From sequence record OQ973471.1: DNA of 64,000 nucleotides, one strand, 5' to 3'. The DNA is from Escherichia phage AV101. Below the pieces are notes generated by a model. The model made no database searches. It had not been told where the DNA came from and worked only from the letters and a program-made list of their open reading frames with translations. The position numbers were made by a program, and so were the translations under genes. Of the stretch, positions 1 to 16,355 are shown piece after piece (position 1 is the first letter of the stretch; the number at the start of each line of letters is the position of its first letter).

Positions 1-176
1 ATGGGCACTTGCACAGCATCTATGGACACGCCGTTGTCTTCAAGATATTTGTGAAAATCTTCTTGTTTGTCGGCATCGATTTGTGGCATAGAAGAACGCG
101 AAAGCCCGAGGTTCCCAACAGGAATCCTCAGGCCGTTAATGATGTTCAACCAGTCAATAAAAGATGTAAGGAACAT
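1..176 (-). CDS. hypothetical protein, partial (3' end beyond window edge)
   Basis: Manual minus-strand translation from ATG at 176-174 (MFLTSFIDWLNIINGLRIPVGNLG...) stays open to the window edge; GAGGTG 6 nt upstream. Confidence 0.3.
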   Translation of the reverse strand, partial: MFLTSFIDWLNIINGLRIPVGNLGLSRSSMPQIDADKQEDFHKYLEDNGVSIDAVQVP

Positions 177-208
177 GACACACCTCGGGATATAGGGTTA
201 TCCCTTAG

Positions 209-400
209 TTAGCGCATCCATCGATCCTTTCTCTCTTTCTCCTTGCGTTCGCGACGTTTCTGGTCGGATCGGAATAACCAATAGAAGAAGTTCCCACCCA
301 AGATGAAAACCACCGCGATTATTACTAGGACACCCTTCACAATTTCCCAAACCAATTCTTTATCCAAATTATACCTCGTCTTCTTCAGGTCCACCGTCAA
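209..400 (-). CDS. small membrane protein (one predicted TM helix, basic C-tail)
   Basis: 63-aa ORF with hydrophobic core VLVIIAVVFILGGNFFYWLF; start is TTG and no clear RBS, so uncertain. Confidence 0.3.
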   Translation of the reverse strand: MTVDLKKTRYNLDKELVWEIVKGVLVIIAVVFILGGNFFYWLFRSDQKRRERKEKERKDRWMR

Positions 401-656
401 TCAGGATACGAGCGGTGTCGAAAGTTTCCCCGCCCGTGTTCAGCAGCTTAGTCAGATCGTCAAGATATCGAACCGTGCCAAGATCAGATGACCGCGATAT
501 AAACTCCAGCATACCATACAACGCTGTTTGGAATCGGCTGTTATCGATATCGTTCTTTATTACCATCAGGCGCAAGATGTTCTCTGACTGAGTATGGCCA
601 ACACACGCCTTGTCTCTGATCATCTCCTTGATAGAACTTCTCTCTGATGGTGTCAT
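369..656 (-). CDS. hypothetical protein
   Basis: 95-aa ORF; ATGA start/stop overlap with the upstream gene suggests translational coupling. Confidence 0.45.
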   Translation of the reverse strand: MTPSERSSIKEMIRDKACVGHTQSENILRLMVIKNDIDNSRFQTALYGMLEFISRSSDLGTVRYLDDLTKLLNTGGETFDTARILIDGGPEEDEV

Positions 657-1027
657 AACGTACCCCCGACAGAGATCAAGAACTCTTCTTGCATGGTCTT
701 GACCGGGTGGTGGTTGCGGGTTTCGATCATGAAGCCCCAGCCGCCGTCGGCGACGTTGCCAAAGGTCTTGACGCCAAAGGACTTCGTCCCGTTGGAGCAG
801 GAATAGATGTCCAGGACGTATGGGCTACCCTGATTGTCGATCCCACGATTCACGTCGTCTGATACGCAGCGCTCAATCATCTTCCCGTTCTTATACAGAA
901 CGAGGTCTTGGCCATACGCCTTGAAAGCATAAACACCGTTGGTAGACACTCCGGTGATGACAGGAGGGGCGGAAACAGCAGCAAAGGAAGCGCCTAGCAG
1001 GGCAACAGCGAGGATTAACTTTTTCAT
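653..1027 (-). CDS. secreted/periplasmic small protein
   Basis: Internal start MKKLILAVALLGASFAAVSA is a typical signal peptide; listed ORF N-terminal extension is not protein-like. Confidence 0.5.
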   Translation of the reverse strand: MKKLILAVALLGASFAAVSAPPVITGVSTNGVYAFKAYGQDLVLYKNGKMIERCVSDDVNRGIDNQGSPYVLDIYSCSNGTKSFGVKTFGNVADGGWGFMIETRNHHPVKTMQEEFLISVGGTL

Positions 1028-1042
1028 GATATAGTCTCTTGG

Positions 1043-1086
1043 TTTCAAATGGGCGGGGTAATCATACCCCGCCGTGGGTTTATAGA
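1043..1086. repeat. intergenic hairpin element, copy 1 (TTCAAAT-GGCGGGG..CCCCGCC..TTATAG)
   Basis: GC stem GGCGGGG/CCCCGCC with conserved flanks; near-identical copies at 1601-1645 and 16356-16400. Confidence 0.55.
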
Positions 1087-1586
1087 GTAACAAGTGATAC
1101 GGTAAAAACCATCGTCCCGTCTGTTGCCATTTTTCTTGAAACTGGTATGACGCGAGGCTGGCAGAATATCCATTCTTTCTCCATGGACGCCAAGTCCAGC
1201 ATATCCATTTCTGATTCATCGCCTTTGTTCACAAATTTTTCTAGAGAACCATAGACATTAAGCCCCTCCGGGAGTCTGTTTCGATGTTTGTAACAAATGC
1301 GGGCAACAGCTTTGGTTCCGTACGATTTAGAAAATTTTTTGGCCACATGCTTCAGTTCACTGAAGCTAAGACAAGAGTCCCATGTCTGGAACATGTCGCC
1401 TCGTTCAAACATTATCTCTAAACGCGCAACGTCCTCTTTAGGCAACCCACGATAAAGTGTGGTCGTCTGTGGTTCGCGCAATTCTTGCACCAGATCGCGG
1501 ACGGCAGGGGAAACAGTACCGGGGCGCATGATGTGGGACTTATCATGGACGAGGTAAAATAAATCTTGAATTTGTTGATCGGTCAT
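1080..1586 (-). CDS. hypothetical protein
   Basis: ORF with internal start MTDQQIQDLFY; AGGAA RBS upstream. Confidence 0.5.
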   Translation of the reverse strand: MTDQQIQDLFYLVHDKSHIMRPGTVSPAVRDLVQELREPQTTTLYRGLPKEDVARLEIMFERGDMFQTWDSCLSFSELKHVAKKFSKSYGTKAVARICYKHRNRLPEGLNVYGSLEKFVNKGDESEMDMLDLASMEKEWIFCQPRVIPVSRKMATDGTMVFTVSLVTL

Positions 1587-1600
1587 GGTATAGTTCCTGC

Positions 1601-1645
1601 ATTTCAAATAGACGGGGTAATCATACCCCGCCCAAAGTTATAGAA
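1601..1645. repeat. intergenic hairpin element, copy 2
   Basis: Same stem GACGGGGTAATCATACCCCGCC and flanking TTCAAATAG / TTATAG as copy 1. Confidence 0.55.
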
Positions 1646-1885
1646 TTAACTGATGTGCTTCAGAAGAGCGAAGAGGATCGCGGCCTTGGCCTTTACCTTT
1701 CCCACGATGCCTGTCTCGACATCAACTTCTTCAGCAACCCACTCTTTTCCCTTCTTGCTGATGATAACGTCACGGCGCTGTGCGTAGACTTCTTTGGTCG
1801 CATACACACGGCGGAACCCTTTAGCGCGGAGCAATCCCCAATTGCGATCAATTTCTACTGAGGTTTCTACCATTTTGTTCTTCAT
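1646..1885 (-). CDS. hypothetical protein
   Basis: 79-aa ORF with ATG start and AAAGGTAAG upstream. Confidence 0.45.
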   Translation of the reverse strand: MKNKMVETSVEIDRNWGLLRAKGFRRVYATKEVYAQRRDVIISKKGKEWVAEEVDVETGIVGKVKAKAAILFALLKHIS

Positions 1886-1955
1886 GTTATAATCTTACCT
1901 TTCAACCCGGTGAACCCATCGTTCGCCAGTTATTGAATAATAGGACATTCCTTAG

Positions 1956-1988
1956 AGGAAGTAAACCCCTAAAAGTAAAAATCCCCAA
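1956..1988 (-). terminator. rho-independent terminator
   Basis: Hairpin TCCCCAAC-GTTT-GTTGGGGA followed on the minus strand by a T-run. Confidence 0.5.
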
Positions 1989-2007
1989 CGTTTGTTGGGG
2001 ACTTCTG

Positions 2008-2331
2008 TTATTTGCGCAGGGCAACCACGAGTTCAGAGAGTTCACCCATGGTCGGGTCATCGCCTTTACTACCTAGCCACCCGTCGTCGATTTCGACCTG
2101 AAACTCTTCTTCGAGGTCCATTACAATTTCGATAGCGTCCAGTTCATCACCGCCGAGGTCTTTCTTGGTACGGAGGCCAGCCAGCTTGTCCAGGGCGTCC
2201 TCGTTCTGAGATGCCACGTCGTCCAGCAATTTGCGCTTGTCATCGTCACGCCACAGATCCATATTCAGATTGTCGGTGGCGTACTGAGCCAGATGACGCA
2301 TGACTTCAACATATGTTGGTTTACTGCTCAT
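2008..2331 (-). CDS. acyl-carrier-protein-like protein with Glu in place of the phosphopantetheine-attachment Ser
   Basis: DLGGDELDAIEIVMDLEEEF aligns to the ACP motif [20 protein letters not shown]; acidic helix-II pattern retained; GGGAGAAG RBS. Confidence 0.6.
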   Translation of the reverse strand: MSSKPTYVEVMRHLAQYATDNLNMDLWRDDDKRKLLDDVASQNEDALDKLAGLRTKKDLGGDELDAIEIVMDLEEEFQVEIDDGWLGSKGDDPTMGELSELVVALRK

Positions 2332-2342
2332 GCTACTTCTCC

Positions 2343-2368
2343 CAAAGAAAGGCGGGTTGCCCCGCCCG
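2343..2368 (-). terminator. rho-independent terminator
   Basis: Hairpin GGCGGG-TTGC-CCCGCC followed by TTTCTTTGGG on the minus strand. Confidence 0.5.
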
Positions 2369-2373
2369 TTGGA

Positions 2374-4575
2374 TTAGATTTTGATTTCTTTCTCTGTCAG
2401 TTCGGCAGTGACCTTGTACTTCACGCCATCCACTTCAACTTCCATGGTGGACTCTTCCAGGTCGAGGTCGGTGAACCAGCCGTGGCCAGCAACGATACCA
2501 TACACCACTTTAGACAGTGTCTTGTTCAGGGCACGGACTTCGGTGATGGCCGCCTTGGCAGCAGCGTCGATCCAGTTTTCGATCAGCTGTTTCTGTAAGG
2601 CTTCAGGCACGGCAGTGATCATAGGAGACTTCACGAATGCTTCGTACTCTTTCAGAGCATTGGCGATGAACAAGTCACCAGCATTGAGTTTCTTGTTCTC
2701 GGCAATCTTCTTCTGTACCGCTGCGATAGACGGTAGAGATGAAGCGCCAGCGATCTTCACGTTCAGCTCACGGCTCATGTAGAAGTCGGTAGACTCTTTG
2801 GTCTCAGTCTTCGGTGAGAAGCCGTAATCGCGGATGCCGTAGGAGGACAGGAACTCGGCCGCCTCAGCGCCGTACTGTACTGCCAGGCCTTTGGCGTTAC
2901 CCTTACCAACCAGGGCGTCTCGATAGAACTTCAGCACCTTCTGCTTGCCTTTCAGGGCTTCCAGACGGACATTATCCGCAAAGAACTGAGCAGCACTGAT
3001 GTTCTTGACCATGGCGCGGTTGACCAGCGGTACGCTTTCCAGGTTCAGGACAAACACTTCCGGACCACCAAACACGTGGACGCCCATTTCGATCAGCTTT
3101 TGTACAACTTCGATATCAGCCTTGAACGGCAGAGTCTTCACGTTAATGATACCGTCTTTGACGATGGTGTAGTTGCGCCACTGGAAGGTGTCCAGTTCTT
3201 CAGGTAGACCAAACTTCTTCTGTGCGAATTCAGGCACAGCCACAGTACCGTGTTGAATTGTACGCACACTGATGTTCGGGCGCTCGGAGTTATAGACCAA
3301 ATCACTGATTGGCACAACACCCAGATCGTTGGTAGGTTCGAACGTCGGGTTCCACTCTTCGTGTTCTGCCAGCTTGAGAGCCAGGGCTTTACGCTCTTCT
3401 TTGGACTGAGCATTCGCGATCTGTTCTGCCAGCTTGTCTTCGGTGTCGTCGGTTTTCTGCACAGTACCGCGCCCGATACTCTTATAGGAGAACATCGGAT
3501 GCTTGGTAGCAACAGGCACACCAGCTTCAGCCAGGTACGTCAGCACATCAACGACGGTCGTCGCATCTTCAGCCGGAACCAGGTCATAGTCAATACCGTC
3601 AACACCGCGCAGCTGGTCGTCAACGATGGCCTGGGTCAGATCGTTCTTGATGTTGGAATAGTCCTGCTTGGTGAAGCAGTTGCTGTACTGTTTGATGAAG
3701 CGGACGTCGCCCGTCTTCTTCAGCGCAGCCCAAACCAGATCTGCGTCCATAGTGTGTACACCGTAGAACGCCAGCACGTATGCCGCCTGGATGTCCGTCA
3801 GGCTATCCATCTGGTCGATCATGTTAGGGTTTACAACCCACAGCTTGGTGACGCTCTCAGGGATGCTCACATAGCCGACCGGGTGAGAGTCATCGTCCTG
3901 TACTGCCAGCACGGTTGCCACACCGTTTTCGACGTAGATGGCATGGGTGTAGATGACTGGGACATCAACAACCACCTTCGGCACTGAAGACTTCAGTACG
4001 TTTTCCAGCTCGGTCTGATATTCGGTCTGGCCTTCGGCAAACACGTGAGTCGCGCCAGAGCGCTCGGACATCAGAGCCAGCAGTTCGCGGTTACAGTGCC
4101 AGCCGTATTCGATAAATGTAATGTTATCGAAAGCAAATGGCAGGGTCTCAGCAACCAGTAGAATTTCGTTGGTACGCCAGCAGTTGTCATACCCGTCAGT
4201 CATAAATGCCAGGTTGTTGACGTAGCCAGGTTTCTTCAGGTCACGCGCAGTATCCATCGCCAGTTTCAATGGCTCAACGAAACCAGTACAGCCGGATGGT
4301 TGCAGGAAACGGTCGATCAGTTTGTTCAGCTCGCTCAGGTCAGACGCAGCACTAACCTGGCGGCCAGCGAACACAGTACCAAAGTCGCCTTTGGAGGAGA
4401 AATACAGAACGCTCACAGTGTCTTCCGGCTTCACCAGGGATGGCAGGTTCTCCTTCAGGTGCTTGCGGACTTCAGGGAGCGCACGGTACATAGAGCCGGA
4501 AATGTCTACAACGATTACATGGTTGGACGGAGCAGCAGTCGCAACCGCATTCTTAAATTCTAATGATTCAATCAT
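2374..4575 (-). CDS. von Willebrand factor A (vWA) domain protein, about 733 aa
   Basis: N-terminal MIDAS-type motif VIVVDISGSMY (DxSxS) with downstream T/D positions; start taken at MIESLEF with AAGAGAA upstream; about 530 aa of unassigned C-terminal sequence. Confidence 0.6.
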   Translation of the reverse strand: MIESLEFKNAVATAAPSNHVIVVDISGSMYRALPEVRKHLKENLPSLVKPEDTVSVLYFSSKGDFGTVFAGRQVSAASDLSELNKLIDRFLQPSGCTGFVEPLKLAMDTARDLKKPGYVNNLAFMTDGYDNCWRTNEILLVAETLPFAFDNITFIEYGWHCNRELLALMSERSGATHVFAEGQTEYQTELENVLKSSVPKVVVDVPVIYTHAIYVENGVATVLAVQDDDSHPVGYVSIPESVTKLWVVNPNMIDQMDSLTDIQAAYVLAFYGVHTMDADLVWAALKKTGDVRFIKQYSNCFTKQDYSNIKNDLTQAIVDDQLRGVDGIDYDLVPAEDATTVVDVLTYLAEAGVPVATKHPMFSYKSIGRGTVQKTDDTEDKLAEQIANAQSKEERKALALKLAEHEEWNPTFEPTNDLGVVPISDLVYNSERPNISVRTIQHGTVAVPEFAQKKFGLPEELDTFQWRNYTIVKDGIINVKTLPFKADIEVVQKLIEMGVHVFGGPEVFVLNLESVPLVNRAMVKNISAAQFFADNVRLEALKGKQKVLKFYRDALVGKGNAKGLAVQYGAEAAEFLSSYGIRDYGFSPKTETKESTDFYMSRELNVKIAGASSLPSIAAVQKKIAENKKLNAGDLFIANALKEYEAFVKSPMITAVPEALQKQLIENWIDAAAKAAITEVRALNKTLSKVVYGIVAGHGWFTDLDLEESTMEVEVDGVKYKVTAELTEKEIKI

Positions 4576-4783
4576 TGTTCTCTTCGCCTTGTGCGTAAGG
4601 GTTAAGTTCAGACTCATCAGCGGCTTCGATGCGCGTCTTTACAGAGTCCAGCATATTGTTGATAAACTCACGAGACTGCTCCAGCTGAGCCAAGAGCACA
4701 TCCTTTGGAGCATAGTTCTGAATGCAAGCCGGAATACTTTCAGACGTCGCCTTCAGGTCGGTAAAACATTCTTTCAGTATCAT
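4568..4783 (-). CDS. hypothetical protein
   Basis: 71-aa ORF with ATG start, overlapping the vWA gene start by a few nt. Confidence 0.4.
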   Translation of the reverse strand: MILKECFTDLKATSESIPACIQNYAPKDVLLAQLEQSREFINNMLDSVKTRIEAADESELNPYAQGEENND

Positions 4784-4852
4784 TTGATCTCACTTAACAG
4801 AGACGACGCCCTGTTGGGATTTAATAGCGGTCTTCACAGACATCAGGTTTCC

Positions 4853-4878
4853 CTCAAAACAGGGGAGTCTCCTCCCCT
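4853..4878 (-). terminator. rho-independent terminator downstream of the NAD+ operon
   Basis: Hairpin GGGGAG-GAGA-CTCCCC then TGTTTT on the minus strand. Confidence 0.5.
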
Positions 4879-4885
4879 TCGGTTA

Positions 4886-6550
4886 TCAGATTTGTGAGGC
4901 CAGTTCTGTCACCAGAGGAGCGGCACGGACACGCGCATCTTCCAGCGTTTGGGTGTTGAAGAACTCGCCATCACGATACACCAGCTGGTGCTGGTTGTCG
5001 GCGTCTTGCACCTGATCAAAGGTGATACCGTCAACCAACACTAGTTTACCCTGAGAGTCTTTAATGACTTTAAGGAAACCACGCGCAGACTTTTTAGTCC
5101 CGCCTTTATCGGTCTTCGGCTCTTTGAAGATCTCACGGAATTCACCGTTCACTTTACCAGCCGTGGCTTTCACTGCTGTGCCAGTACTGTCACGGGTGTT
5201 CATCTGGTAGGTGTAGGAACCGATACCGAACACCACGTTGATGGAAGCGAAGTTCCGGTCAGCCAGACGGCTAAAGATCTGGTCTTCACGCGACAGGGTG
5301 ATAGAATCACCGTAGATCAGGCCGATGTGCTCATCCAACAGGAAGTGCCCAGTTTCAGTCTGGGTGCCACCAAAGATCTCCCACAGGCGCTGGATAGAGC
5401 CGACCGCTTCTGAACGGCTGATGATATTACGGTCATCTGCCATCAGAGAGTTGATCGTGCCTTCGCCTGTGATCAGGTGATAGGTGTTCGTCTCTTCGAT
5501 GTGGATGACTTCGGTGCTGCTGGACACGCCGCTGATGTTCAGCGTAGCGCGGTCTTTGAACCCCTCGATACGGTAGCCGCCGACGATGTGCACAGGGTCA
5601 CCAGAGTCAGGGCGGATCACGACTTTACCATTGCGCGCCATGATAATGTCTTTCAGGCGAGGCAGATAGTCGTCGATGACCTGCCAGTAATCCCACGCAT
5701 CAGACACGATGCTGACGATGCCATCAGGATACACGTCCTGCACCAGGCGGCGGAAGGTTTCGAATTCGCCATCCTTCGTGCCCATACACATCACGGCGTG
5801 TTCGGTAGCCGCAACAGAACCAGCAACGACATAATCTTCGTCGATGTCTGCGCCATAATACTCTTCTACGAAGTCCAGGGCAGGGTTGGTGTCGGTGCCT
5901 TTGAAGAACACCAGATGACCGGAACCGGAAGACGCGGCGTCATGCCACCCGCTCATACCACGGAAGGAGAAGTCGTGGCCTTGGTAGTCGATGAACCAAT
6001 GGTCCGGTGATACTCCCGTAGCGAGGGCAGCTTTCACCATCAGTGCCTTGTAATGCAGAGCGATGGTGGCGTTCGTCATCGGCTTCCAGATCTCAGAGCT
6101 GAACACAGTCTCCAGATAGTTGGTCAGCCAGTAGAACTCCGGCAGGGTATTGAACATCACATACACCGGAACACCATACGGACACATGGTGCCTTCAGGC
6201 AGCGCACGGACTTCGATAGGCAGGTAGCCGAGGTCATGCAGGGCTTCAATATGCTCTGTGCCGACGCGGCCTGGACCCAGGACTTTGTTCATGCGACGGG
6301 CATACTTCTTCAGCACCTTGGTCTTCGGGCGCTGGAAGAATGCTTCGTCAAACAGTTCGTGGAACCAGGTCATGAAGCCCTGGATACCCCAGACCACCAC
6401 GCCGTTCTTCGGCAGGTGAGAGTTGAAAAGTTTGTTAGAGCGCGGAGTTCCGTTGGAGAACACCAGCTCACTGCCTTCAGGGAACTGATAGATGTGCCCC
6501 GATTTGTAGAAGTCGATCGCATGGATTGGGTCTAAGTGGCGCATGCTCAT
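4886..6550 (-). CDS. nicotinamide phosphoribosyltransferase family protein (Nampt/NadV-like; possibly Namat of an NAD+ reconstitution pathway)
   Basis: 554-aa protein with strong Nampt-family resemblance across its length (MSMRHLDPIHAIDFYKSGHIYQFPEG... GHDFSFRGMSGWHDAASSGSGHLVFFKGTDT); 4-nt overlap with the upstream PRS-like gene. Confidence 0.85.
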   Translation of the reverse strand: MSMRHLDPIHAIDFYKSGHIYQFPEGSELVFSNGTPRSNKLFNSHLPKNGVVVWGIQGFMTWFHELFDEAFFQRPKTKVLKKYARRMNKVLGPGRVGTEHIEALHDLGYLPIEVRALPEGTMCPYGVPVYVMFNTLPEFYWLTNYLETVFSSEIWKPMTNATIALHYKALMVKAALATGVSPDHWFIDYQGHDFSFRGMSGWHDAASSGSGHLVFFKGTDTNPALDFVEEYYGADIDEDYVVAGSVAATEHAVMCMGTKDGEFETFRRLVQDVYPDGIVSIVSDAWDYWQVIDDYLPRLKDIIMARNGKVVIRPDSGDPVHIVGGYRIEGFKDRATLNISGVSSSTEVIHIEETNTYHLITGEGTINSLMADDRNIISRSEAVGSIQRLWEIFGGTQTETGHFLLDEHIGLIYGDSITLSREDQIFSRLADRNFASINVVFGIGSYTYQMNTRDSTGTAVKATAGKVNGEFREIFKEPKTDKGGTKKSARGFLKVIKDSQGKLVLVDGITFDQVQDADNQHQLVYRDGEFFNTQTLEDARVRAAPLVTELASQI

Positions 6551-7401
6551 TTTACACGTCCTGTATTTTCAGTTTTGAAAGGAAGCCCGTCGGCGGTGAT
6601 GTTCTCCCACCAGACAGTGTCGGCATACACAGCATCATAGATCCCGTCGAAAACAGAGAGACCTTTGCTGAAGATGCCATGGGTAACGAAGAGCGTCATG
6701 TGCTTAGGCTTGTGCTTCTGAAGCTCTTTGCCTAACTCAACGAACGTGCGCCCACCGTCGCAGATATCATCGACCACCACCAGATAGCGGTCTTTGATCA
6801 GTTCAGGGTTTGTAACACTCACCCCAATGATCTCACCAGTCTTGGTATCGCGGTTCTTATGGCCGTAGACAACAGGAACACCGTCCAACGATAGGCTGAG
6901 GGCTTCGGTCTTCTTAGTCGCGCCGCCGTCAGGAGCTACCAACACAGCGTTGTTCCCACGGATGAACCAGCCCAGATACTGACGCACGATGTAATCTTGC
7001 GGGACAACATGAACGTTGTTGATCAGAGAAGACACAACATGGCTGTGAGGATCTTTGATTACCACGCGGTCAAAGTTCATGCTATTGATGAATTCAGCCG
7101 CCCACTTCACAGACAGAGGCTCACCGAAGTCACAATGGCGGTCCTGGCGAGCATACGGGAAGTAAGGGATATACGCATGGAATGTCGTCAGACGGTCCAC
7201 GTTACTCAGACCACGAACGGCGTTTACCAGAAGCGCCAGCTCAATGAAGTCGGCTGATGATTTGATGTGAGCATCAATCACCACGTTCTGAACGTGGCCG
7301 ATAGGGATACCAGACTTTTGGATCTTGATATGTTCCTCACCACCTGGGAAGGTGAAGTGTTTGTAGAACACATCTTGGTCGTTCAATTTCAAACGAAACA
7401 T
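6547..7401 (-). CDS. ribose-phosphate pyrophosphokinase family protein (PRPP-synthetase-like; possibly ADP-ribose pyrophosphokinase Adps)
   Basis: PRPP-binding loop YLVVVDDICDGGRTF and PRS-like N-terminal half; GAGG RBS; co-oriented and overlapping with the Nampt-like gene. Confidence 0.8.
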   Translation of the reverse strand: MFRLKLNDQDVFYKHFTFPGGEEHIKIQKSGIPIGHVQNVVIDAHIKSSADFIELALLVNAVRGLSNVDRLTTFHAYIPYFPYARQDRHCDFGEPLSVKWAAEFINSMNFDRVVIKDPHSHVVSSLINNVHVVPQDYIVRQYLGWFIRGNNAVLVAPDGGATKKTEALSLSLDGVPVVYGHKNRDTKTGEIIGVSVTNPELIKDRYLVVVDDICDGGRTFVELGKELQKHKPKHMTLFVTHGIFSKGLSVFDGIYDAVYADTVWWENITADGLPFKTENTGRVK

Positions 7402-7460
7402 AATGCAGCCTCATGGTGTATTGTACAGCCGTATTATACTGTGACGCACAAATTGAAACG
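7402..7460 (-). promoter_or_regulatory. candidate sigma70-like promoter for the NAD+ operon
   Basis: On the minus strand, TTTCAA (weak -35), about 16 nt spacer, then TATAAT, about 35 nt upstream of the PRS-like ATG. Confidence 0.3.
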
Positions 7461-7509
7461 CCCAGCAAATTCACTGGACGTTATTGATATTGAAAAGGTT
7501 TTGACAAAC

Positions 7510-7743
7510 TCAGGATTTGGAGGAAGCACCCTTCCATGTCTGACGTTTGTAGTGGGAAGCCATGGCCATCGACCCGGCGTATTGCGTTTCACCCCTGACT
7601 ACCACAGCCACAACCAGCTTATGTCGCAACAGGAAGTCCAGACCTGACTTAGACGGGATATCGCCAATGCTCAGTGGACCACGATTGTACAGGGCATACA
7701 TGGTGTCAAGCGCCGCCCCGGTAAAAATAATCTCTTTAGACAT
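7510..7743 (-). CDS. hypothetical protein
   Basis: Internal ATG start MSKEIIFTGAAL; 77 aa. Confidence 0.4.
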   Translation of the reverse strand: MSKEIIFTGAALDTMYALYNRGPLSIGDIPSKSGLDFLLRHKLVVAVVVRGETQYAGSMAMASHYKRQTWKGASSKS

Positions 7744-7750
7744 GGTGGTC

Positions 7751-8056
7751 TCACTTAAACGAGTCAACGGTGGATGTAAGAATTTCGGGGGTGGGTTTGG
7801 CGTCTTGTGGTTCACGGAAACCCACCTTTGCGATGCGGTCCAAGACATTGTACACTTCGCGCGGAAGGGTGTCTACGACCGTGTCCGACATGAACACCAC
7901 GTCTTCTTGGATGGCGTTGTATTCAGCCAGTTTAGCCAGTTCTGATTCTACCAGGGACTTCAGCTTTTGCAATGGGTCGTTGCAATAGTTGAGACGGTTG
8001 CAGTTAGTGAGCGCCTGAGTTAGATTCTCAAACGCTTCTTGTATTTCCTTTGACAT
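7751..8056 (-). CDS. hypothetical protein
   Basis: Internal ATG start MSKEIQEAFENL; 101 aa, helical and acidic. Confidence 0.45.
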   Translation of the reverse strand: MSKEIQEAFENLTQALTNCNRLNYCNDPLQKLKSLVESELAKLAEYNAIQEDVVFMSDTVVDTLPREVYNVLDRIAKVGFREPQDAKPTPEILTSTVDSFK

Positions 8057-8438
8057 TGATATGTGCCTCGTATTGTTGACAGACAACAACTACTTTACGG
8101 CACATGTCGATATCGAACAAGCCAATATGACACTCACGCTTCTTTATCCCCAGCTTATGCGCCAGCCAACTGTAAGCGTCGCTCCTGCTCCTCTCTCCGC
8201 TTTTCCACAATGGGTCAAACGATCTATGGGCTTCCTGCTTAGCAGCACGGAGAGCGGCATTCGCCATCCTTCCCAGAGGTTGTCTGCCGTCGCCATGGGC
8301 ATGGCAACCGACACGGGCATCACATGGAGTGCACACCCAGAACTTCAGATTGCGGAGGTCAGGGCGATGAGGGTAGAGAACATCACCACCGACGAATTCG
8401 GCTGGGAGGCCACAGTAATCACATATAACAGGTTTCAT
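8028..8438 (-). CDS. cysteine-rich (zinc-ribbon-like) protein
   Basis: CDYCG...CTPCDARVGCHAH cysteine/histidine clusters; listed ORF start is GTG, internal ATG (MKPVICDYCG) preferred. Confidence 0.45.
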   Translation of the reverse strand: MKPVICDYCGLPAEFVGGDVLYPHRPDLRNLKFWVCTPCDARVGCHAHGDGRQPLGRMANAALRAAKQEAHRSFDPLWKSGERSRSDAYSWLAHKLGIKKRECHIGLFDIDMCRKVVVVCQQYEAHINVKGNTRSV

Positions 8439-8498
8439 ATTCTTTGTCCAAAAGAAACCCCGCACATGGCGGGGTTGCTCAGGCTGAGGTCAGACAGA

Positions 8499-8870
8499 TT
8501 ATTTCAGGAGTGCTTCCAGTTCTTCAACAGATTTGCTTTCCAGCTCTTGCTGTTTCTTACGCTGGATCAGCTCCAGGATAACCTGGTTGTTCGCCTTACG
8601 CTCTGCCGCTTCTCTGCTGTCGTCACGTTCTTTCAGCTTAACGCCGATGATGTGCTTGACAACGTCGAAGCGCAGCTGCAGTTCGGAGTCAACGTTGCTT
8701 TTGGTACCAATGAAATCTTCTTCATCGGTTTCTGCTGCTTTCACCTGACGGCTCAGACCTTTCGCCATTTCGTTCAGGGCAGTCAGGCTCAGGTCCCAGA
8801 CCTGCTCAATAGACAGCAGACCTTTGTTAGACTCGAAGCGCAGTTTCATACGGGTTGCTTTATCAAACAT
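8499..8870 (-). CDS. hypothetical protein
   Basis: 123-aa ORF, ATG start, GAGGA RBS 9 nt upstream. Confidence 0.5.
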   Translation of the reverse strand: MFDKATRMKLRFESNKGLLSIEQVWDLSLTALNEMAKGLSRQVKAAETDEEDFIGTKSNVDSELQLRFDVVKHIIGVKLKERDDSREAAERKANNQVILELIQRKKQQELESKSVEELEALLK

Positions 8871-8914
8871 TTTACTATCCTCAATGATGAATGGGTTACA
8901 ATTTCAAATCAGGT

Positions 8915-10933
8915 TTAGAACACAACTTTCACAGTGCGGTTGAACGAACCGCTCACCTTCACGAACACGTGGTTGCGTTGGGTGGTAGAGAAGCCCAGAC
9001 CGGACAGCTGCTCAGTGCTTGGCTGTACTTTAATCTTACCACCTAACATTTCAAAAACCTTGCGGTGTTTATCAAGTTCCGGCTTCAGATATTCGTTATA
9101 GAAACCACGGGTGCCGACAGGGTTAGCACAACCTTCCAGGATGAAGAACACGTGCTTGTTGCCAGTCTGCTCGCCGTCCCAATGGTTTGGTGAGTTCAGA
9201 ACCAGCTGTACCTTCTGGAAGACGGAGGTCTTGATGCCCCAGATTTCCTGAGAGCGAGCGTCGTCTTTCAGGGTAGAACGGATGTCTACCACTTGTCCAG
9301 CGCGGACATCAATCACAACAGCCAGAGTGCGATCTTTGTGCTTCAGGCCAGGATGCGAAAAACGCTTGGTCTGGCCTTTGTATTCAACTTCGATTTCGAA
9401 GCCCATATCACAGGTTTCACGCTGGCTGAAGTTAGTGACATAGAACTCGTACAGACCATCACGCAGCTTGCGTTCATCGCTGAAGAAGATGTTCTCCACC
9501 GGACGGCGGTTTGGATCAATGCCGTCCATACCGTTCATGTCGATGTCTAGAGTTGCGCCAGTTGTCGAACGACGGTTGTGATAATACACGTGGTTGTGAA
9601 GAGGATCGTTCAGGCTCAGATCCAGGTCGTCGTTGTTATGCCAAGCCAGTGACACACGGAGGAAGCTGTCGACATTGCCGCCTGCGGTCTTCACGCGCTC
9701 TTTGATGGAGTCGGCCACTTCGCCATTGTACGACCAGCTGAAGCCGTTGTTCCACTTGAACAGGTTAGGAGCGCCTGCGGTGGCCGGAGCGATCAGGGAC
9801 ATCAGGTTGCCAATGTGAGAGTTTTCGACCAGCACTTCCAGGGAATGCGCCTTTGGCAACACGTTGGTCAGGAAGTCGTCGATCGTGATCTCTTCAACCT
9901 TGTCCAGGGACTTGGTCGGAGTCTTCACTTCAGACGCCAGCTGAGCAAACGGGTCCATCTTCTTCTGAGCTGCTAGGTCGGCGAACAGAACGTTGTTGAT
10001 GGTCAGATCGTCATACACGGCATAACGGCGACCCAGTGAATCAGTCAGACCCAGCGCTTCGACTTCTTTCTGCGCGTTTTCAATCATCGACTTCGTGACC
10101 AGCGCGGTTGGGCGCTTGTAGTTCGTCGGAGCGACTTTGGCTTCAAAGGACTTCACGGCGGTTTCCAGATCCCGACCTTCATTGAGGTCTACCAGCAGAG
10201 AGCCAATCACGGTATTACGAATGCCGTGAGGGGTATGACCGTTTGCACGGTAGCCAGTGCGCCAAGCCCACAGAGCGCGTTTCTCTTCTGCAGTTTGTTC
10301 GTACAGGGTCTTGTTCACCACGAACGCCTGCACTGCCGCTTTGTGCTCTTCACCGCGATACAGAGAATTCTGGTCAATCAATTCAAGAACGATTTCAGCC
10401 GATTCCAGAGACAGTTCACGCAGGCCGCGCTCAAACACTTCAATCGCCTGGCGGATTTCACCCTTCTTAGAAGCGATGGTATCTGCCCGCAGAACATAGC
10501 TGCTCAGCAGGTCGGTGTGGAAGTGGTTGTAGGTGCGGACAATACCGTCTTTCATTTCGTGATTCGACCCAACACCAACTTTCTTGGTGTCGTTGAAGTA
10601 CACATCGACGATTGCGTGCTGCTTAACATATGCTGACAGCGCCGCAGCGACAACGTCGTATTCGTTACCCAGCTGAATGTTATCCCAGATAGAGATCACG
10701 TTCAGGTCGGAGTCGATGGTGACCACACCGCCGATATTACGGATGAATTGTTTACAGCAGGTACAGTCGTGTTCGGTACGCTCACGATAAAGCGGGTTAG
10801 TGCCAGCAGGGAAAGAAGACAGATACAGATCCCACAGAGCATCTTTATCGATGTTGGTCATGAACAGACCAGTTGCTGACATGGCCAGCACATTATTGTT
10901 TACGGCTACTGCGAAGGGCTTAAATTCTGACAT
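8915..10933 (-). CDS. large uncharacterised protein (672 aa)
   Basis: Long ORF with AGGAAG RBS; N-terminal HDCTCC cysteine cluster; no family recognised by eye. Confidence 0.6.
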   Translation of the reverse strand: MSEFKPFAVAVNNNVLAMSATGLFMTNIDKDALWDLYLSSFPAGTNPLYRERTEHDCTCCKQFIRNIGGVVTIDSDLNVISIWDNIQLGNEYDVVAAALSAYVKQHAIVDVYFNDTKKVGVGSNHEMKDGIVRTYNHFHTDLLSSYVLRADTIASKKGEIRQAIEVFERGLRELSLESAEIVLELIDQNSLYRGEEHKAAVQAFVVNKTLYEQTAEEKRALWAWRTGYRANGHTPHGIRNTVIGSLLVDLNEGRDLETAVKSFEAKVAPTNYKRPTALVTKSMIENAQKEVEALGLTDSLGRRYAVYDDLTINNVLFADLAAQKKMDPFAQLASEVKTPTKSLDKVEEITIDDFLTNVLPKAHSLEVLVENSHIGNLMSLIAPATAGAPNLFKWNNGFSWSYNGEVADSIKERVKTAGGNVDSFLRVSLAWHNNDDLDLSLNDPLHNHVYYHNRRSTTGATLDIDMNGMDGIDPNRRPVENIFFSDERKLRDGLYEFYVTNFSQRETCDMGFEIEVEYKGQTKRFSHPGLKHKDRTLAVVIDVRAGQVVDIRSTLKDDARSQEIWGIKTSVFQKVQLVLNSPNHWDGEQTGNKHVFFILEGCANPVGTRGFYNEYLKPELDKHRKVFEMLGGKIKVQPSTEQLSGLGFSTTQRNHVFVKVSGSFNRTVKVVF

Positions 10934-11052
10934 GATGTAGTCTTCCTGTTTCAGTTCAAATGTGCGCCCCGTTTGCCAGGGCGCTTCGTTTAAGTGAGGT
11001 CAATAATACGTTGAAAAAAGTTATTGAAGAATGAAGTAAAGGGAATCTTTAT

Positions 11053-11277
11053 TCAGACGATCTTACCACCGTCACAAGGCCGAGTATCACCGGAGTTGTA
11101 TGCCAGCATCCCCTGCATCAACAAACGTCTTGGCCCAGAAACTGATTTCTGTTTCCTCAACGTACTGCAGAACCGAGTAGTGCCTGGGTAAGGAGTGTAC
11201 ACGAGACGACCTTGCATACGAGCTTCCAGTAGGAATTCATCTGTGGCTTTGCGTAACTTGAATAATTTCCAGCTCAT
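11053..11277 (-). CDS. hypothetical protein (doubtful)
   Basis: 74-aa ORF with ATGA overlap to the HNH gene stop; no other support. Confidence 0.25.
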   Translation of the reverse strand: MSWKLFKLRKATDEFLLEARMQGRLVYTPYPGTTRFCSTLRKQKSVSGPRRLLMQGMLAYNSGDTRPCDGGKIV

Positions 11278-12203
11278 TTTTCACCCTTGTATCTTTTTAA
11301 CCATTTGACGCATTTTAATGGTTCCCACCCTTTATTGAAACGTTCGATAATGCTGTTTGTCGCATTAAAAGCCTTCAAATCCTTTGTTCCGTACACATGC
11401 ATGAGGGCTTCCGCTCTTTTCATCGTCTTCAAAGATTGCATAAGCAAATCAGCTTTTGACCAATACACATCATTTTCGGGGTTCCATTTCGCTTTCTCCC
11501 AAGGCAACTTCACTAACATACCTTTCTGGGCGTTTTCTTTCTGTTTGGCTCGTTGTTCCGGTGTGAAAGAATTGGTTAAGTCCTTCCCATAATTGGGATT
11601 GAGTTTCCCGAGTTTTGCTTGTCTAGAACGCTCCGAAAATTGCTTCAAATCTGTATTGGCGCGACGCCGCTCTAAAACCTGCCTTTTATATTCAGGGTCA
11701 GAAGCCATTCTTTCATGGATTTTCATCAATCCTTTGGTAATTTTCTTGACTTGCTCTGGAGTTCTCTTATATCCATATTGGGGGTTATTCTTTCCTCTCC
11801 TTCCGTACATTGGGTTGTCTTTACCCACAAACCGAGAAACCCCTTTCCATTGTAAAGATAGTTGTTCGCTGAATTTAATTCTGAAACTTTCATATAAATG
11901 AGAATTAAACCGAATCCCCGATTTATTTCTTCTTCCCCCCTTTCTCATAGCCACCACAGCATACACCATTCTCGTGTTTGGGAAAGCCAATGCCAAGCAC
12001 AAATGCACAAGATAATGTTGCCTGCCTGTTAATCGAACCAAATTGTTCTTATCTTTAAAATATTCAGGGAACATGCTCTTGGGAAGGATGTGGTGTAATT
12101 CAGTGTAGTCACCATCAGAATATTTGAAAGATTGAACCATCCTCAAATACTTCTTGATGAAATGCGGTTTACCGCCTTTAGAAACCAACAATTCATAAAA
12201 CAT
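11274..12203 (-). CDS. HNH homing endonuclease with NUMOD3-like repeats
   Basis: HNH core ELHHILPKSMFPEY...NLVRLTGRQHYLVH; repeated GKDNPMYG / GKNNPQYG / KLNPNYGKD motifs; AT-rich codon usage unlike neighbours. Confidence 0.8.
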   Translation of the reverse strand: MFYELLVSKGGKPHFIKKYLRMVQSFKYSDGDYTELHHILPKSMFPEYFKDKNNLVRLTGRQHYLVHLCLALAFPNTRMVYAVVAMRKGGRRNKSGIRFNSHLYESFRIKFSEQLSLQWKGVSRFVGKDNPMYGRRGKNNPQYGYKRTPEQVKKITKGLMKIHERMASDPEYKRQVLERRRANTDLKQFSERSRQAKLGKLNPNYGKDLTNSFTPEQRAKQKENAQKGMLVKLPWEKAKWNPENDVYWSKADLLMQSLKTMKRAEALMHVYGTKDLKAFNATNSIIERFNKGWEPLKCVKWLKRYKGEK

Positions 12204-12234
12204 AACAGGAACTCCAAAAATGAAAGTTCCTGTT
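12204..12234 (-). promoter_or_regulatory. inverted repeat spanning the RBS of the HNH endonuclease gene
   Basis: AACAGGAAC-(13 nt)-GTTCCTGTT lies immediately 5' of the ATG and includes the GGAG Shine-Dalgarno. Confidence 0.45.
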
Positions 12235-12264
12235 ATAATATACTTTGTTAACTCACAAAGTAAG

Positions 12265-13464
12265 TTACTTTTTAAATAAATTTAGCAGGTTTTTAGAACC
12301 AGATGTCGTCGCTTTAGGTTGTCCTTCCCCATCGTAACCAACCTTCCCGCGCGGTTTTTTGCCTTGGTTGACGGCTTCTACACAACGGGTATATTTCGAC
12401 AATTCACAAAAGTGGTTCTCTAATTGTTGAACATTCATACACTGATCCCAAGGCTCTTCGGCCGACCAAAATTCTTCCCTGTTATACCCAAGAGGACCAT
12501 AAACTGCGTCCTGATTATCCCGTAGCCAGAAGATGCATTCTTCGTGGGTCATACCGTCTTTGTTCAGGAACATCAGGTCGATGCCTGCGCGACAGCCTGG
12601 TCCAGCAACCGTGAAGTGGTTCTCGCTGAAAGGATATCCAGGAATGTACGTGAAATCAACCCAGATCTGATAGGCCAGGAATGGACCAAGCCCTTCGATG
12701 TCGTCATACATGCGCTGGTATACTTCCAGAGGAGTACCAAGGCGCAGCAAGTCATGGAAATAGTTTGGATACTTGTTGACGAATGCCTTCAGAGAACGGA
12801 TAACACGCATCGGCATGTATGGTTCCCATCCCTCGATGGTATATTCACCAGGATTCTCTTCGACCAGCTTTTTGGCGACCTTGTAGTCCATCTCGTCCAC
12901 AATACCCTGGCCAACGCGATACACTTTCACCATCATCCCACCGAAGCACTGCTCCTTGTGGTTGACAACCATCTCAGGGAAAGCCAGGCATTGCTTCAGG
13001 CCGCCCGTGTTGAAGGCATTGGTGAATACCTTACCACCGTCGGCCTCGAACTTCTGAAGTCGTTCGCGGGTTGCATCGAGGTTGATCTCGGCGAATTCTT
13101 TGATCGTCATCGCGCCGCCGATAGCCTGGATTGGATCCCAGAGGTTGAACATGCGGAACATCACGCAGTTGAACATCTTGTCGGCCATACCCAGAGCATC
13201 GTTGTTGACGATGTTGTTGATCAGGTTGAGAGACTGTCTGTCGTGCTCTCTCCGGACGTTACAGAATTTAACCTGGCGTAGTATGGGATTATCAGTCCAA
13301 GGAGCAGGAAGGCGCTGGACGTCCTTCTTGACGTGGATCTGATAACGATCGCGCATCCATTCGTAAGACAGGCTGGTATGGGTCGGACTGAGAACCGGTT
13401 TGGCCGACTTTATCTTTTCTTCACGGACACCGCAGTACGGGACGTCCAGGGCTTTATCTTTCAT
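12265..13464 (-). CDS. hypothetical protein (399 aa)
   Basis: ORF with AAGAGGA RBS; sits where T4 has DNA polymerase gene 43 relative to regA. Confidence 0.6.
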   Translation of the reverse strand: MKDKALDVPYCGVREEKIKSAKPVLSPTHTSLSYEWMRDRYQIHVKKDVQRLPAPWTDNPILRQVKFCNVRREHDRQSLNLINNIVNNDALGMADKMFNCVMFRMFNLWDPIQAIGGAMTIKEFAEINLDATRERLQKFEADGGKVFTNAFNTGGLKQCLAFPEMVVNHKEQCFGGMMVKVYRVGQGIVDEMDYKVAKKLVEENPGEYTIEGWEPYMPMRVIRSLKAFVNKYPNYFHDLLRLGTPLEVYQRMYDDIEGLGPFLAYQIWVDFTYIPGYPFSENHFTVAGPGCRAGIDLMFLNKDGMTHEECIFWLRDNQDAVYGPLGYNREEFWSAEEPWDQCMNVQQLENHFCELSKYTRCVEAVNQGKKPRGKVGYDGEGQPKATTSGSKNLLNLFKK

Positions 13465-13482
13465 GGTATCCTCTTAGAATAC

Positions 13483-13512
13483 GAAAACAGAGGCCATTAT
13501 AGCCTCTGTTGT
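13483..13512 (-). terminator. rho-independent terminator
   Basis: Hairpin ACAGAGGC-TATAATG-GCCTCTGT followed by TTTTCGTATT on the minus strand. Confidence 0.5.
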
Positions 13513-13532
13513 TTAGTGAATAACCGTATATC

Positions 13533-14405
13533 TTAATCGATACGGGTCAGTTGGGTGATAGATGATTGCACTGGGCTGGCCACATAGATACGGACGTTGG
13601 CTTTCCATTCACCCCAGATCAACGGCAGAGTTGGGAAGTTGTCTTCATTGAAAACAAACACGGGAATGTAGCTCTCGACTGTTTCGCCAGAGAACGCCTG
13701 AAAGCCCATCTTGGTGTATCCCATGATCTCGTCAATAAAATCGAACGGAGCGAAGGCAACACCAGCGTGTTCGTTAGAACCGAGCTGGCCTGGAATGGCC
13801 GTGCCCGTCAGAATGATTTCGGTGATCTGGCGCTTAGGCTCGGTGGTCAACATATCAGAGAAGTCAGGCTCTTTGAAGGTTGCCATGTTCTTCAGGAACT
13901 TGCCAGCCGGGTACTCTTTGCCGTCGACAGTGATGGTGTCCACCACTTTGATGCACGCCTGAGGGAATTCCCCTTCGATGCGTAGACTTTCGCGTGGGAA
14001 TCCTTTGTTATAGTAATACTCCAGCGCTGGAACAACTTCACCTTCATTGCGAACGAACTTGCTCATGTTAGAGGCATACACGCGTTGTAGGCATTCGTCA
14101 CCGTCGAAACCAGCAATATGAGCCACACCGTCGTTGACAGTGGTGATGTCGCCCTGGGCATCCATGATCTGGCGCATAATGTCTTTGATGTCGACAACAA
14201 CGGGTTCTTTCAGGACTCGCGGAGATGCAGTGAACTCAATTTTCACCTCGTGGTCGAAATACACCGCTTCCAGCAGTTCACGGGTTTCTTCCAGCACCAG
14301 TTTCGCCTGATTGCGGATCTTACCAAAGTCAGGCGATGTGACGTCGCCCTTTGCATTACCGAAAGCCAGATTCAGATTCACGTTCTTAGAAAATGTAGTT
14401 GTCAT
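13533..14405 (-). CDS. hypothetical protein (290 aa), possible MazG-like NTP pyrophosphohydrolase N-terminal region
   Basis: LVLEETRELLEAVYF resembles the EExxE..EA helix of MazG/HisE-type enzymes; weak, by eye only. Confidence 0.45.
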   Translation of the reverse strand: MTTTFSKNVNLNLAFGNAKGDVTSPDFGKIRNQAKLVLEETRELLEAVYFDHEVKIEFTASPRVLKEPVVVDIKDIMRQIMDAQGDITTVNDGVAHIAGFDGDECLQRVYASNMSKFVRNEGEVVPALEYYYNKGFPRESLRIEGEFPQACIKVVDTITVDGKEYPAGKFLKNMATFKEPDFSDMLTTEPKRQITEIILTGTAIPGQLGSNEHAGVAFAPFDFIDEIMGYTKMGFQAFSGETVESYIPVFVFNEDNFPTLPLIWGEWKANVRIYVASPVQSSITQLTRID

Positions 14406-14421
14406 GATTTAGCGACTCCAG

Positions 14422-14817
14422 TTATTCGCTTTTTGCCTTCGTAGGCCGGATGATGTATTTTGGAACCAGCTTCCATTCAGGAACCTGATCGTGTTTAACC
14501 ACTTTAATGCGAGACATATCGGCTGCTTCGGTGACCTGCTCAGGATGAATGACCTTCACCATGTTCCACTGCTCCAGCAGCTTGATGATTCGGTTCATCC
14601 TCAGGACATCTTCGCGGTTAAATCCGTTGTAATGCCCGTCCAGCATAAATAGATGCTTAAAGTGGACGATATAATACTTGCCGCACTTATGAAGAATATG
14701 GCAAGTTTGATACAGAGTATTCGGCTCTTGGCGCGTGTTTACCCCAATTCGACTCAGTGTTTCCTTGATCCCCAGGAATATACCTGGCCGATCTTGGTTC
14801 AATTGAACTTCAACCAT
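14422..14817 (-). CDS. regA: translational repressor RegA
   Basis: LYQTCHILHKCGKYYIVHFKHL and EWKLVPKYIIRP match T4 RegA (LYQSCHILQKKGLYYIVHFKEM, HEWKLVPKYTIG); GGAG RBS; sits beside the clamp-loader genes as in T4. Confidence 0.8.
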   Translation of the reverse strand: MVEVQLNQDRPGIFLGIKETLSRIGVNTRQEPNTLYQTCHILHKCGKYYIVHFKHLFMLDGHYNGFNREDVLRMNRIIKLLEQWNMVKVIHPEQVTEAADMSRIKVVKHDQVPEWKLVPKYIIRPTKAKSE

Positions 14818-14915
14818 ACAATCAACGATGCTGGCCTCATCGTTGACTGCTGAAATATTCAATATGTCTAGCGTATTACGCGCCATGACTCATTCCCCTT
14901 TTACAATAGTTTGAA

Positions 14916-15338: not shown

Positions 15339-15342
15339 AATA

Positions 15343-16332: not shown

Positions 16333-16355
16333 TTTCAGCCTCGTGTAGAAGAATC

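Follow-up and report, generated by a model that had tools for sequence, protein, structure and literature searches.

What does a large bacteriophage protein built around a metal-binding von Willebrand factor A (vWA) domain do when no ATPase partner is encoded next to it? This question is raised by a gene on the minus strand, at positions 2374–4575, in a 64,000-nucleotide stretch of Escherichia phage AV101 (sequence record OQ973471.1), which is referred to below as the window. The initial annotation, which was made from the sequence alone, described a large vWA protein with an N-terminal MIDAS (metal-ion-dependent adhesion site; DISGSM) and about 530 residues of unrecognized sequence, and suggested that the AAA+ partner usual for phage vWA proteins might be supplied by the host. 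The MIDAS domain and the exact coordinates given for the gene hold up, the protein's N-terminal portion belongs to the class of ArnB, YfbK and Sec23/24, and the entire family appears to dispense with a dedicated AAA+ partner; a role in phage morphogenesis is tentatively favored.

The window comes from a phage of the Ackermannviridae type (Aglimvirinae/Agtrevirus-like); the stretch used as the query shows 97% DNA identity to Escherichia phage YX22 and is matched by 239 phage records, and the vWA proteins of related phages are 92–99% identical. The long open reading frame (ORF) read from its first ATG spans 2374–4617 on the minus strand (747 amino acids (aa); stop codon at 2374–2376), and the start assigned here, the ATG at 4575 that yields 733 aa, is the one found in homologues, in PHROG 2426 and in the YX22 annotation. 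PHROG 2426, which carries no function, matches residues 15–747 of the 747-aa ORF with E=0. That the gene is coding is certain: its family spans over 1300 clusters at 50% identity, and mass spectrometry of the Kuttervirus Sajous1 detected a peptide from the orthologue. The features of the gene and its product are the following.

2374–4575, minus strand: gene for the 733-aa vWA-family protein (PHROG 2426), from the ORF list, the PHROG match and relatives
3985–4527, minus strand: vWA domain, Rossmann-like alpha/beta, residues ~17–197
4492–4506, minus strand: MIDAS loop 1, D24-I-S26-G-S28, read from the sequence
4285–4287, minus strand: MIDAS residue T97
4195–4197, minus strand: MIDAS residue D127
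3826–3984, minus strand: predicted six-stranded beta-sandwich domain, residues 198–250
3520–3825, minus strand: predicted helical domain, residues 251–352, with the conserved motif LGDVRxIKxYxNCFTKQDYS
2377–3519, minus strand: family-specific C-terminal module, residues 353–733

The vWA domain has the typical Rossmann-like alpha/beta fold and is recognized by Pfam (VWA, PF00092) on residues 20–183 (E 1e-5, 26.3 bits compared to a cut-off of 23.8). The complete MIDAS set DxSxS...T...D is represented by D24, S26, S28, T97 and D127, with DISGSM corresponding to residues 24–29. Loss of these residues upon careful alignment, which had been named as a possible refutation, is not seen: in a 40-sequence alignment with identity down to 35%, the set is complete and invariant or nearly so, and among 145 representatives (50%-identity clusters with a median identity of 32% to the query), T97 and D127 are present in all 145, D24 and S28 in 142 each, and S26 in 141. 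Conservation of 97–100% at this evolutionary distance argues for strong selection for metal-mediated ligand binding.

AlphaFold2 models built with the family alignment were obtained both for the full-length protein (predicted local distance difference test (pLDDT) score 87.1, predicted template modeling (pTM) score 0.67) and for residues 198–733 alone (pLDDT 91.1, pTM 0.80). In the model, the beta-sandwich, which is probably joined by the N-terminal strand 3–6, is packed against the vWA domain as it is in ArnB and Sec23/24. ArnB, 4fx5, Escherichia coli YfbK and Sec23/24 have been described as sharing one architecture, in which a MIDAS-bearing vWA domain is combined with a beta-sandwich and, at the C-terminal end, a helical bundle (PMC12852372). 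Helices are predicted at residues 252–350, and the helical domain may correspond to the one that follows the sandwich in ArnB and Sec23/24; the structural alignments to 4fx5_A and Sec24 extend beyond the vWA domain and the sandwich by only about 30–40 residues, as judged by alignment lengths rather than by residue-level superposition. Thus, residues 1 to about 250, and perhaps 251–352 as well, are predicted to belong to the ArnB/YfbK/Sec23-24 class, with the rest of the protein showing no detectable relative.

ArnB and ArnE (vWA2) of Sulfolobus and the bacterial 4fx5/YfbK type share the N-terminal arrangement with the phage protein at a sequence identity of only 11–16%. ArnB is about 380 aa long and terminates in a regulatory bundle of four helices, which is phosphorylated and recognized by ArnA, an FHA/zinc-finger protein, whereas the phage protein possesses an extra module of about 380 aa with no known fold. 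No ArnA-like partner was found, and the DUF3268 zinc-finger gene located nearby has an unrelated distribution; nor does the phage protein itself contain a zinc finger of the kind seen in ArnA and Sec23/24. The Sec23/24 core of COPII combines trunk, beta-sandwich and helical domains, the first two of which are arranged as in the phage protein, but Sec23/24 also carry a zinc finger at the N-terminus and a gelsolin domain at the C-terminus, and the Sec23/24 trunk is not known to have a functional MIDAS. Furthermore, Sec23/24 are eukaryotic membrane-coat proteins, whereas the phage protein shows no sign of membrane association, and no signal peptide or transmembrane segment was detected in its sequence. 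The inter-alpha-trypsin inhibitor heavy chains ITIH1/4 are secreted, act outside the cell and contain a VIT domain; neither a signal peptide nor a VIT domain is present in the phage protein. The core beta-barrel, bridge fold and DNA-binding ring of Ku70/80 are all missing in the phage protein, and no TerD, TerC, TelA or phosphatase/kinase genes, which would indicate a Ter system, are present in the first 16 kb of the window or in the other loci compared. The protein is, then, a member of the vWA/MIDAS superfamily, with an N-terminal part of the ArnB/YfbK/Sec23-24 class, and does not belong to the MoxR-coupled, Ku, Ter or virion-adhesin groups.

The C-terminal module appears, from the model, to be one compact unit peculiar to this family. 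It consists of a variable coiled insert (residues 375–410, deleted in one clade), a beta-rich part containing the motifs RPN(I/V)S and RNYT(I/V)xKDGI, long helices and a terminal beta-hairpin; the other conserved motifs are VPL(I/V)NR, KxxQKV, YGxEAAxxLxxxGIRDYGFSP, DFYxSKELxxKxxGxSSLP and GHxWF. About 535 residues fall outside the Pfam match, and about 380–480 of these have no known resemblance. The claim that some 530 residues were unrecognizable is accordingly retained for the C-terminal module and amended for the sandwich at 198–250, and perhaps the helical domain at 251–352, which can be assigned to the ArnB/Sec23-24 class. The unassigned part has no match in Pfam, NCBIfam, PADLOC or PDB sequences, and among the PHROGs only the functionless PHROG 2426 was matched; C-terminal homology to a known structural protein, the other refutation that had been named, did not surface. 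Specifically, Pfam searches with single sequences and 12 family members at E values up to 5 produced nothing for this part (a precomputed match of PF26044 on P0048 was not reproduced), the full-length profile retrieved only vWA domains from PDB sequences, and the C-terminal profile retrieved nothing below E 0.16. A Foldseek search against predicted viral structures gave four significant matches, all of them members or fragments of the vWA family itself.

A fold with no PDB relative could hide an unrecognized active site, in which case the module would be a new enzyme, for example, a protein- or nucleotide-modifying one, and the vWA domain with its MIDAS would only recruit the substrate. Conserved polar residues provide some incentive for this view: R432, N434, S436, R467, D474, N519, K546, Y599 and W700 are conserved in at least 93% of the 145 representatives (N434 in all of them), many within the motifs RPN(I/V)S, RNYTxxKDG, (I/V)NR, KxxQKV and DFYxSKE, and the polar ones among them other than W700 could form an active site, a point that also counts against the non-catalytic role favored below. 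However, no conserved signature of a common hydrolase or transferase site, be it His, Cys or an acidic pair, is present, and the predicted fold does not match any catalytic fold, so a new enzyme seems rather unlikely.

The absence of an adjacent AAA+ gene, reported initially for this genome, extends across the family. Among 13 diverse loci from Ackermannviridae, T4-like phages, phage AR9, jumbo-phage contigs and bacterial assemblies, no AAA+ gene of the MoxR/CobS/NorQ/RavA type was found within 6–10 kb on either side of the vWA gene; a gp44-type clamp loader is the sole AAA+ protein encoded in the first 27 kb of the window, and a check of the complete 154-kb genome of the related Yersinia phage CAU_YEP3 found no MoxR/CobS-type AAA+ ATPase annotated. 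Independence from a dedicated AAA+ partner thus appears to be a property of the family rather than of one genome. This sets the protein apart from the MoxR-associated vWA proteins (ViaA, NorD, CbbO, BatA/B, CobT and the pairs of ATV and jumbo phages), which are defined by the adjacent AAA+ gene and usually carry their vWA domain at the C-terminus; in the present protein, the domain is at the N-terminus, ahead of the unique module. The premise that a phage vWA protein should pair with an AAA+ ATPase does not suit this class, given that its closest relatives, ArnB, Sec23/24, ITIH, Rpn10 and TFIIH p44, function without a MoxR ATPase. The initial suggestion of a host partner would make the protein a client adaptor of a host MoxR-type ATPase, such as RavA- or MoxR-like machines, which would agree with the lack of a phage-encoded partner. 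Nevertheless, the best structural matches are to the AAA+-independent ArnB, Sec23/24 and ITIH class, the hosts are as diverse as Bacillus, Rhizobium and enterobacteria, which would require a universally conserved host ATPase, and nothing points directly to a host ATPase; this option appears very improbable.

The family is large and uniform. A word-indexed search returned 202 relatives, almost all full length, and an exhaustive hidden Markov model search with a profile of the C-terminal module only identified 1365 clusters at 50% identity with E<=1e-3, or 869 with E<=1e-30. Nearly all clusters are 700–820 aa long with the module starting at residue 250–300, which points to a fixed architecture, and the sampled cluster members carry the N-terminal vWA domain. 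Sequenced phages encoding the protein account for 503 records. In Ackermannviridae, the gene was found in every genus returned by the searches, at 72–92% protein identity, and seems to behave as a core gene rather than as a fast-turnover accessory gene. Other carriers include T4-like Straboviridae, such as Pseudotevenvirus (CfP1), Pseudomonas phage pf16, Rhizobium T4-like phages and Ralstonia phage RP13, along with Slopekvirus (PMBT1) and Karamvirus (Margaery), which we take to be further T4-like carrier genera; the orthologue in Bacillus phage AR9, g068, aligns with 94% of the query at 26% identity, and metagenomic members reside on 200–375-kb contigs that clearly belong to jumbo phages. The family appears to be essentially phage-specific because only 8 loci were detected in 185,579 bacterial and archaeal species-representative genomes, mostly on contigs of metagenome-assembled genomes or in phage-like regions. 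In the 'Flagellimonas marina' assembly (NZ_JBHSCL010000010.1), a marine Flavobacterium assembly, the 17 kb around the vWA homologue are gene-for-gene syntenic with the Citrobacter T4-like phage CfP1 (about 30 ORFs), which suggests that this 178-kb contig contains a T4-like phage sequence, either contamination or an unrecognized phage. No description of the family was found in the literature that was searched.

Evidence on the timing of expression comes mainly from AR9. The g068 gene has a mapped primary late-promoter start site, and its RNA level rises from 0.96 at 5 min to 105.6 at 20 min and 431.5 at 40 min (PMC5312081, supplement). The late genes of AR9 include those for 41 of the 43 virion proteins identified as well as the GroEL chaperone and lysis genes. 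For the pf16 orthologue, the annotation shows a monocistronic unit of its own, with a terminator and with a 'phage specific promoter' in which TACTAAATCC occurs. In CsCl-purified virions of Sajous1, the vWA orthologue is represented by 1 spectrum compared to 924 for the capsid protein, a level equal to that of thymidylate synthase, dUTPase and the clamp loader, replication enzymes that are present as contaminants. Because of this ratio, the vWA protein can be considered to be made but not a regular component of the virion. That single spectrum, the late transcription in AR9, the presence of vWA domains in pilus-tip adhesins and the labels 'tail protein' or 'minor tail protein' in a few GenBank records could also indicate a low-copy virion protein or an ejected one, adhesin-like or internal. 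This reading is highly improbable: apart from the contaminant-like level in Sajous1, the AR9 record does not mark g068 as encoding a virion protein, the protein has no signal peptide, its fold matches no tail or head protein, and the gene is located away from the structural module, the start of which is about 19–22 kb into the window, so that neither reproducible presence in virions nor a structural position is observed.

The reading that we favor, although only as a possibility, is that of a middle-to-late cytoplasmic cofactor of morphogenesis or maturation that engages in AAA+-independent, MIDAS-dependent binding or serves as a co-chaperone. It is preferred because of the AR9 kinetics, the core-like conservation in Ackermannviridae and a precedent from the archaeal virus ATV, in which a MoxR-vWA system has been reported to be required for tail development (PMC7824862, PMC9503650); the same sources regard vWA domains as Mg2+-dependent peptide-binding co-chaperones. 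Under this scenario, a soluble, non-structural protein of large contractile-tailed phages would act in the cytoplasm without a dedicated AAA+ ATPase. By analogy with every characterized MIDAS, the ligand would be a protein, with Asp, Glu or a phospho-residue of the partner contributing the acidic side chain that completes the coordination of the divalent cation bound in the MIDAS. The C-terminal module, presumably non-catalytic, would supply a second binding surface or a scaffold, and the protein as a whole would hold a phage, or possibly a host, protein as a peptide-binding co-chaperone without being built into the virion in quantity. The morphogenetic role itself is deduced from timing in one distant orthologue and from analogy, which weighs against it, as do several features of the locus that involve the following elements.

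4568–4783, minus strand: 71-aa ORF (PHROG 20065, E 1e-11), upstream of the vWA gene, with start/stop overlap
4817–4824, minus strand: TTAAATCC, a two-mismatch variant of the core aCTAAATAcc, 36 nucleotides upstream of the ATG of the 71-aa ORF
4856–4877, minus strand: hairpin GGGGAG-GAGA-CTCCCC followed by TGTTTTG, read from the sequence, directly past the Namat stop codon
2350–2367, minus strand: terminator-like G+C hairpin with a T-run, from the terminator scan, 7 nucleotides past the vWA stop codon

The T4 late promoter TATAAATA is absent from the whole window and from CfP1. The late-promoter core derived for this phage is aCTAAATAcccc (CTAAATAcccc), with 11 exact CTAAATA matches, all on the coding strand (4.8 expected over both strands), that span 19328–61033 on the minus strand (e.g., 57141–57147, 53555–53561, 51072–51078 and 28886–28892) and mostly lie 25–40 nucleotides upstream of structural-gene starts, often followed by a short inverted repeat (ccccat...atgggg). 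CTAAATA does not occur at positions 1–19,300 of the window, and it is likewise missing from the 26 kb that surround the gene in CAU_YEP3 and from about 9 kb upstream and 14 kb downstream of the gene in YX22; the vWA gene, in this phage and in its relatives, is embedded in at least 19–25 kb of replication and accessory genes with no clear CTAAATAcccc. The relaxed motif [CT]TAAAT[AC]C has 8 matches on the minus strand of the window, namely, 7 canonical late promoters and TTAAATCC, with about 3 variant matches per strand expected by chance. It is possible, albeit weakly indicated, that TTAAATCC is the promoter of the pair formed by the small ORF and the vWA gene; of the phages compared, only this one has the two-mismatch variant upstream of the pair, and Vi01, KN2-1 and CAU_YEP3 do not. 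In CfP1, the gene is clustered with small hypothetical genes, which run on the opposite strand from the baseplate genes, a position that looks early or middle rather than late. Furthermore, no Tequatrovirus, such as T4, is among the matches listed in the phage search; if these phages indeed lack the gene, its function is not a general requirement for morphogenesis.

Several of the same observations, in particular the lack of a canonical late-promoter motif upstream of the gene in Ackermannviridae and the patchy-looking distribution in T4-like phages, are compatible with the main competing explanation, namely, host takeover or counter-defense. The MIDAS would then capture an acidic motif of a host protein (a defense sensor, an effector or a protease), and the C-terminal module would mask, sequester or relocalize the target. 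The surroundings of the gene consist of accessory genes, and it is located immediately downstream of a pair of genes in the order typical of NAD+ reconstitution pathway 1 (NARP1), a counter-defense cassette beside which a host-directed role of the vWA protein would fit equally well. This pair consists of a Prs-like gene (6547–7401, 284 aa) and a Nampt-like gene (4886–6550, 554 aa), both on the minus strand, with the stop of the former overlapping the start of the latter, and has the gene order and Pfam content of NARP1 (Adps and Namat). NARP1 counters NAD+-depleting defenses. An ADP-ribosyltransferase-like ORF is found 0.8 kb from the vWA gene, the neighbors on jumbo-phage contigs include RtcB, SprT, NADAR, YAcAr, HD and PolyA_pol, and the neighbors of the vWA gene differ from lineage to lineage. 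Still, g068 is transcribed late, whereas most anti-defense proteins act early, and a highly conserved, core-like protein of 733 aa is at odds with the typical small, fast-evolving anti-defense genes; there is no PADLOC match either. The adjacency to NARP1 is restricted to this phage lineage, and the cassette looks like an insertion because CAU_YEP3 lacks it at this position and because a hairpin of its own comes after it. On balance, a counter-defense function is doubtful but has to be taken seriously along with the morphogenetic one.

In Ackermannviridae, the genes for the clamp, the clamp loader and UvsW are found to one side of the vWA gene and those for the helicase, RNase H and gp46/47 to the other, and most of the identified carriers (Ackermannviridae, Straboviridae genera, pf16 and the Rhizobium T4-like phages) possess T4-type replication genes. 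Combined with the vWA plus beta-barrel plan of eukaryotic Ku70/80, this context could be taken to imply a Ku-like or replisome-associated protein that acts on phage DNA ends or on replication and recombination complexes. Such an accessory role in DNA metabolism is very unlikely, considering that the protein is acidic overall, with an isoelectric point of 5.05 and a single short basic stretch at residues 521–630, that Ku vWA domains lack a functional MIDAS whereas here the MIDAS is the best-conserved feature, and that the neighbors are not conserved outside Ackermannviridae.

Indeed, in an all-against-all BLAST comparison of the ORFs from the 13 loci, the vWA gene itself was the only family in common, and the sole conserved neighbor, in Ackermannviridae only, is a coupled ORF of 56–73 aa. 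In AV101, this is the 71-aa ORF, the stop codon of which overlaps the vWA ATG (ATGATTGA; context AACAATGATTGA), which suggests that it is a translationally coupled upstream gene. Overlapping small ORFs precede the vWA orthologues in CAU_YEP3 (59 aa), Vi01 (56 aa) and Taipeivirus 0507-KN2-1 (73 aa) as well, and share the motif Q(I/L)ExxREF(I/V)xxML. In the Salmonella phage Vi01 (FQ312032.1), the 56-aa homologue at 538–708 is unannotated: it occupies a 268-nucleotide 'gap' upstream of Vi01_123c and overlaps the start codon of that gene, so that the reference annotation omits a conserved gene. The acidic C-terminal tail of the small ORF was considered as a ligand of the MIDAS and found to be unsupported, the conserved '...GNNDD' end being explained by its overlap with the ribosome-binding site and the start codon of the vWA gene. 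Two other candidate partners were discarded. The DUF3268 zinc-finger protein (8028–8465, 3.4 kb upstream) was rejected as an ArnA-like partner because it occurs mainly in unrelated 40–60-kb phages and is not common to the other loci. The 672-aa protein (PHROG 1735; 8915–10933, minus strand) has a different distribution, which includes phiCbK and Bastille-like Bacillus phages among others. It is conserved in Ackermannviridae, has no match in Pfam, NCBIfam or PADLOC, is found at full length with 40–47% identity in phiCbK, pf16 and Bastille-like Bacillus, Vibrio and Stenotrophomonas phages, and is labeled variously as 'YfaP', 'galactose-binding domain-like' and 'RNA polymerase' in the records.

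The small ORF and the vWA gene seem to form a transcription unit of their own. The hairpin at 4856–4877, which was not flagged by the consensus terminator scan, separates them from the NARP1 cassette, and the hairpin at 2350–2367 probably closes the unit ahead of the acyl-carrier-protein gene; in pf16, a Rho-independent terminator is annotated at the equivalent place behind the vWA orthologue. The acyl carrier protein (PHROG 4154, E 1e-56; Pfam PP-binding; 2008–2331, minus strand) is encoded directly downstream of the vWA gene, likewise in Vi01, CAU_YEP3 and 0507-KN2-1, and mass spectrometry detected its Sajous1 orthologue once; a cognate synthase was not noticed in the vicinity of the gene.

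Several other genes in the window deserve mention. The 175-aa ORF at 1080–1607 (minus strand) matches only the C-terminal end (1265–1425 of 1480) of PHROG 832, 'RNA polymerase ADP-ribosylase' (E 2.5e-15), and possibly encodes a small Alt-like ADP-ribosyltransferase domain protein. The 522-aa ORF at 25013–26581 (minus strand), which adjoins the major capsid gene and gives weak REase_MTES_1575 and DUF559 matches, and the 309-aa ORF at 11274–12203 (minus strand), which contains NUMOD3, are probable insertions of the homing-endonuclease type and have no equivalent at the same place in CAU_YEP3. The 399-aa protein encoded at 12265–13464 (minus strand) strongly matches the helical domain of 5-hmdU DNA kinase (PF18723, E 3e-79), which agrees with the thymidine hypermodification pathway that Ackermannviridae are known to possess.

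Altogether, this protein is among the larger conserved proteins without an assigned function in Ackermannviridae, phages that are widely used in biocontrol and therapy against Salmonella, E. coli, Klebsiella and Dickeya. The family indicates that phages can employ a vWA domain of the MIDAS type in the absence of the usual MoxR ATPase and places an ArnB/Sec23-24-like domain arrangement in viruses; what is new is the fusion of a known binding domain and a known arrangement to a large phage-specific module. For about half of the protein, the structure is predicted with confidence and has no PDB relative. Once the ligand is identified, a gene carried by hundreds of sequenced large phages would gain a function, and either a new step of assembly or a new way of handling host proteins could come to light. 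A more far-reaching, unlikely scenario is that the C-terminal module is an undescribed fold with a new biochemical activity or specific recognition, so that the protein would be a phage-specific, AAA+-independent 'MIDAS clamp plus effector' that acts late on a defined phage or host target. If this is the case, the family would represent a new, widespread functional class, shared by Ackermannviridae, several T4-like genera, AR9-like phages and jumbo phages, rather than one more vWA adaptor.

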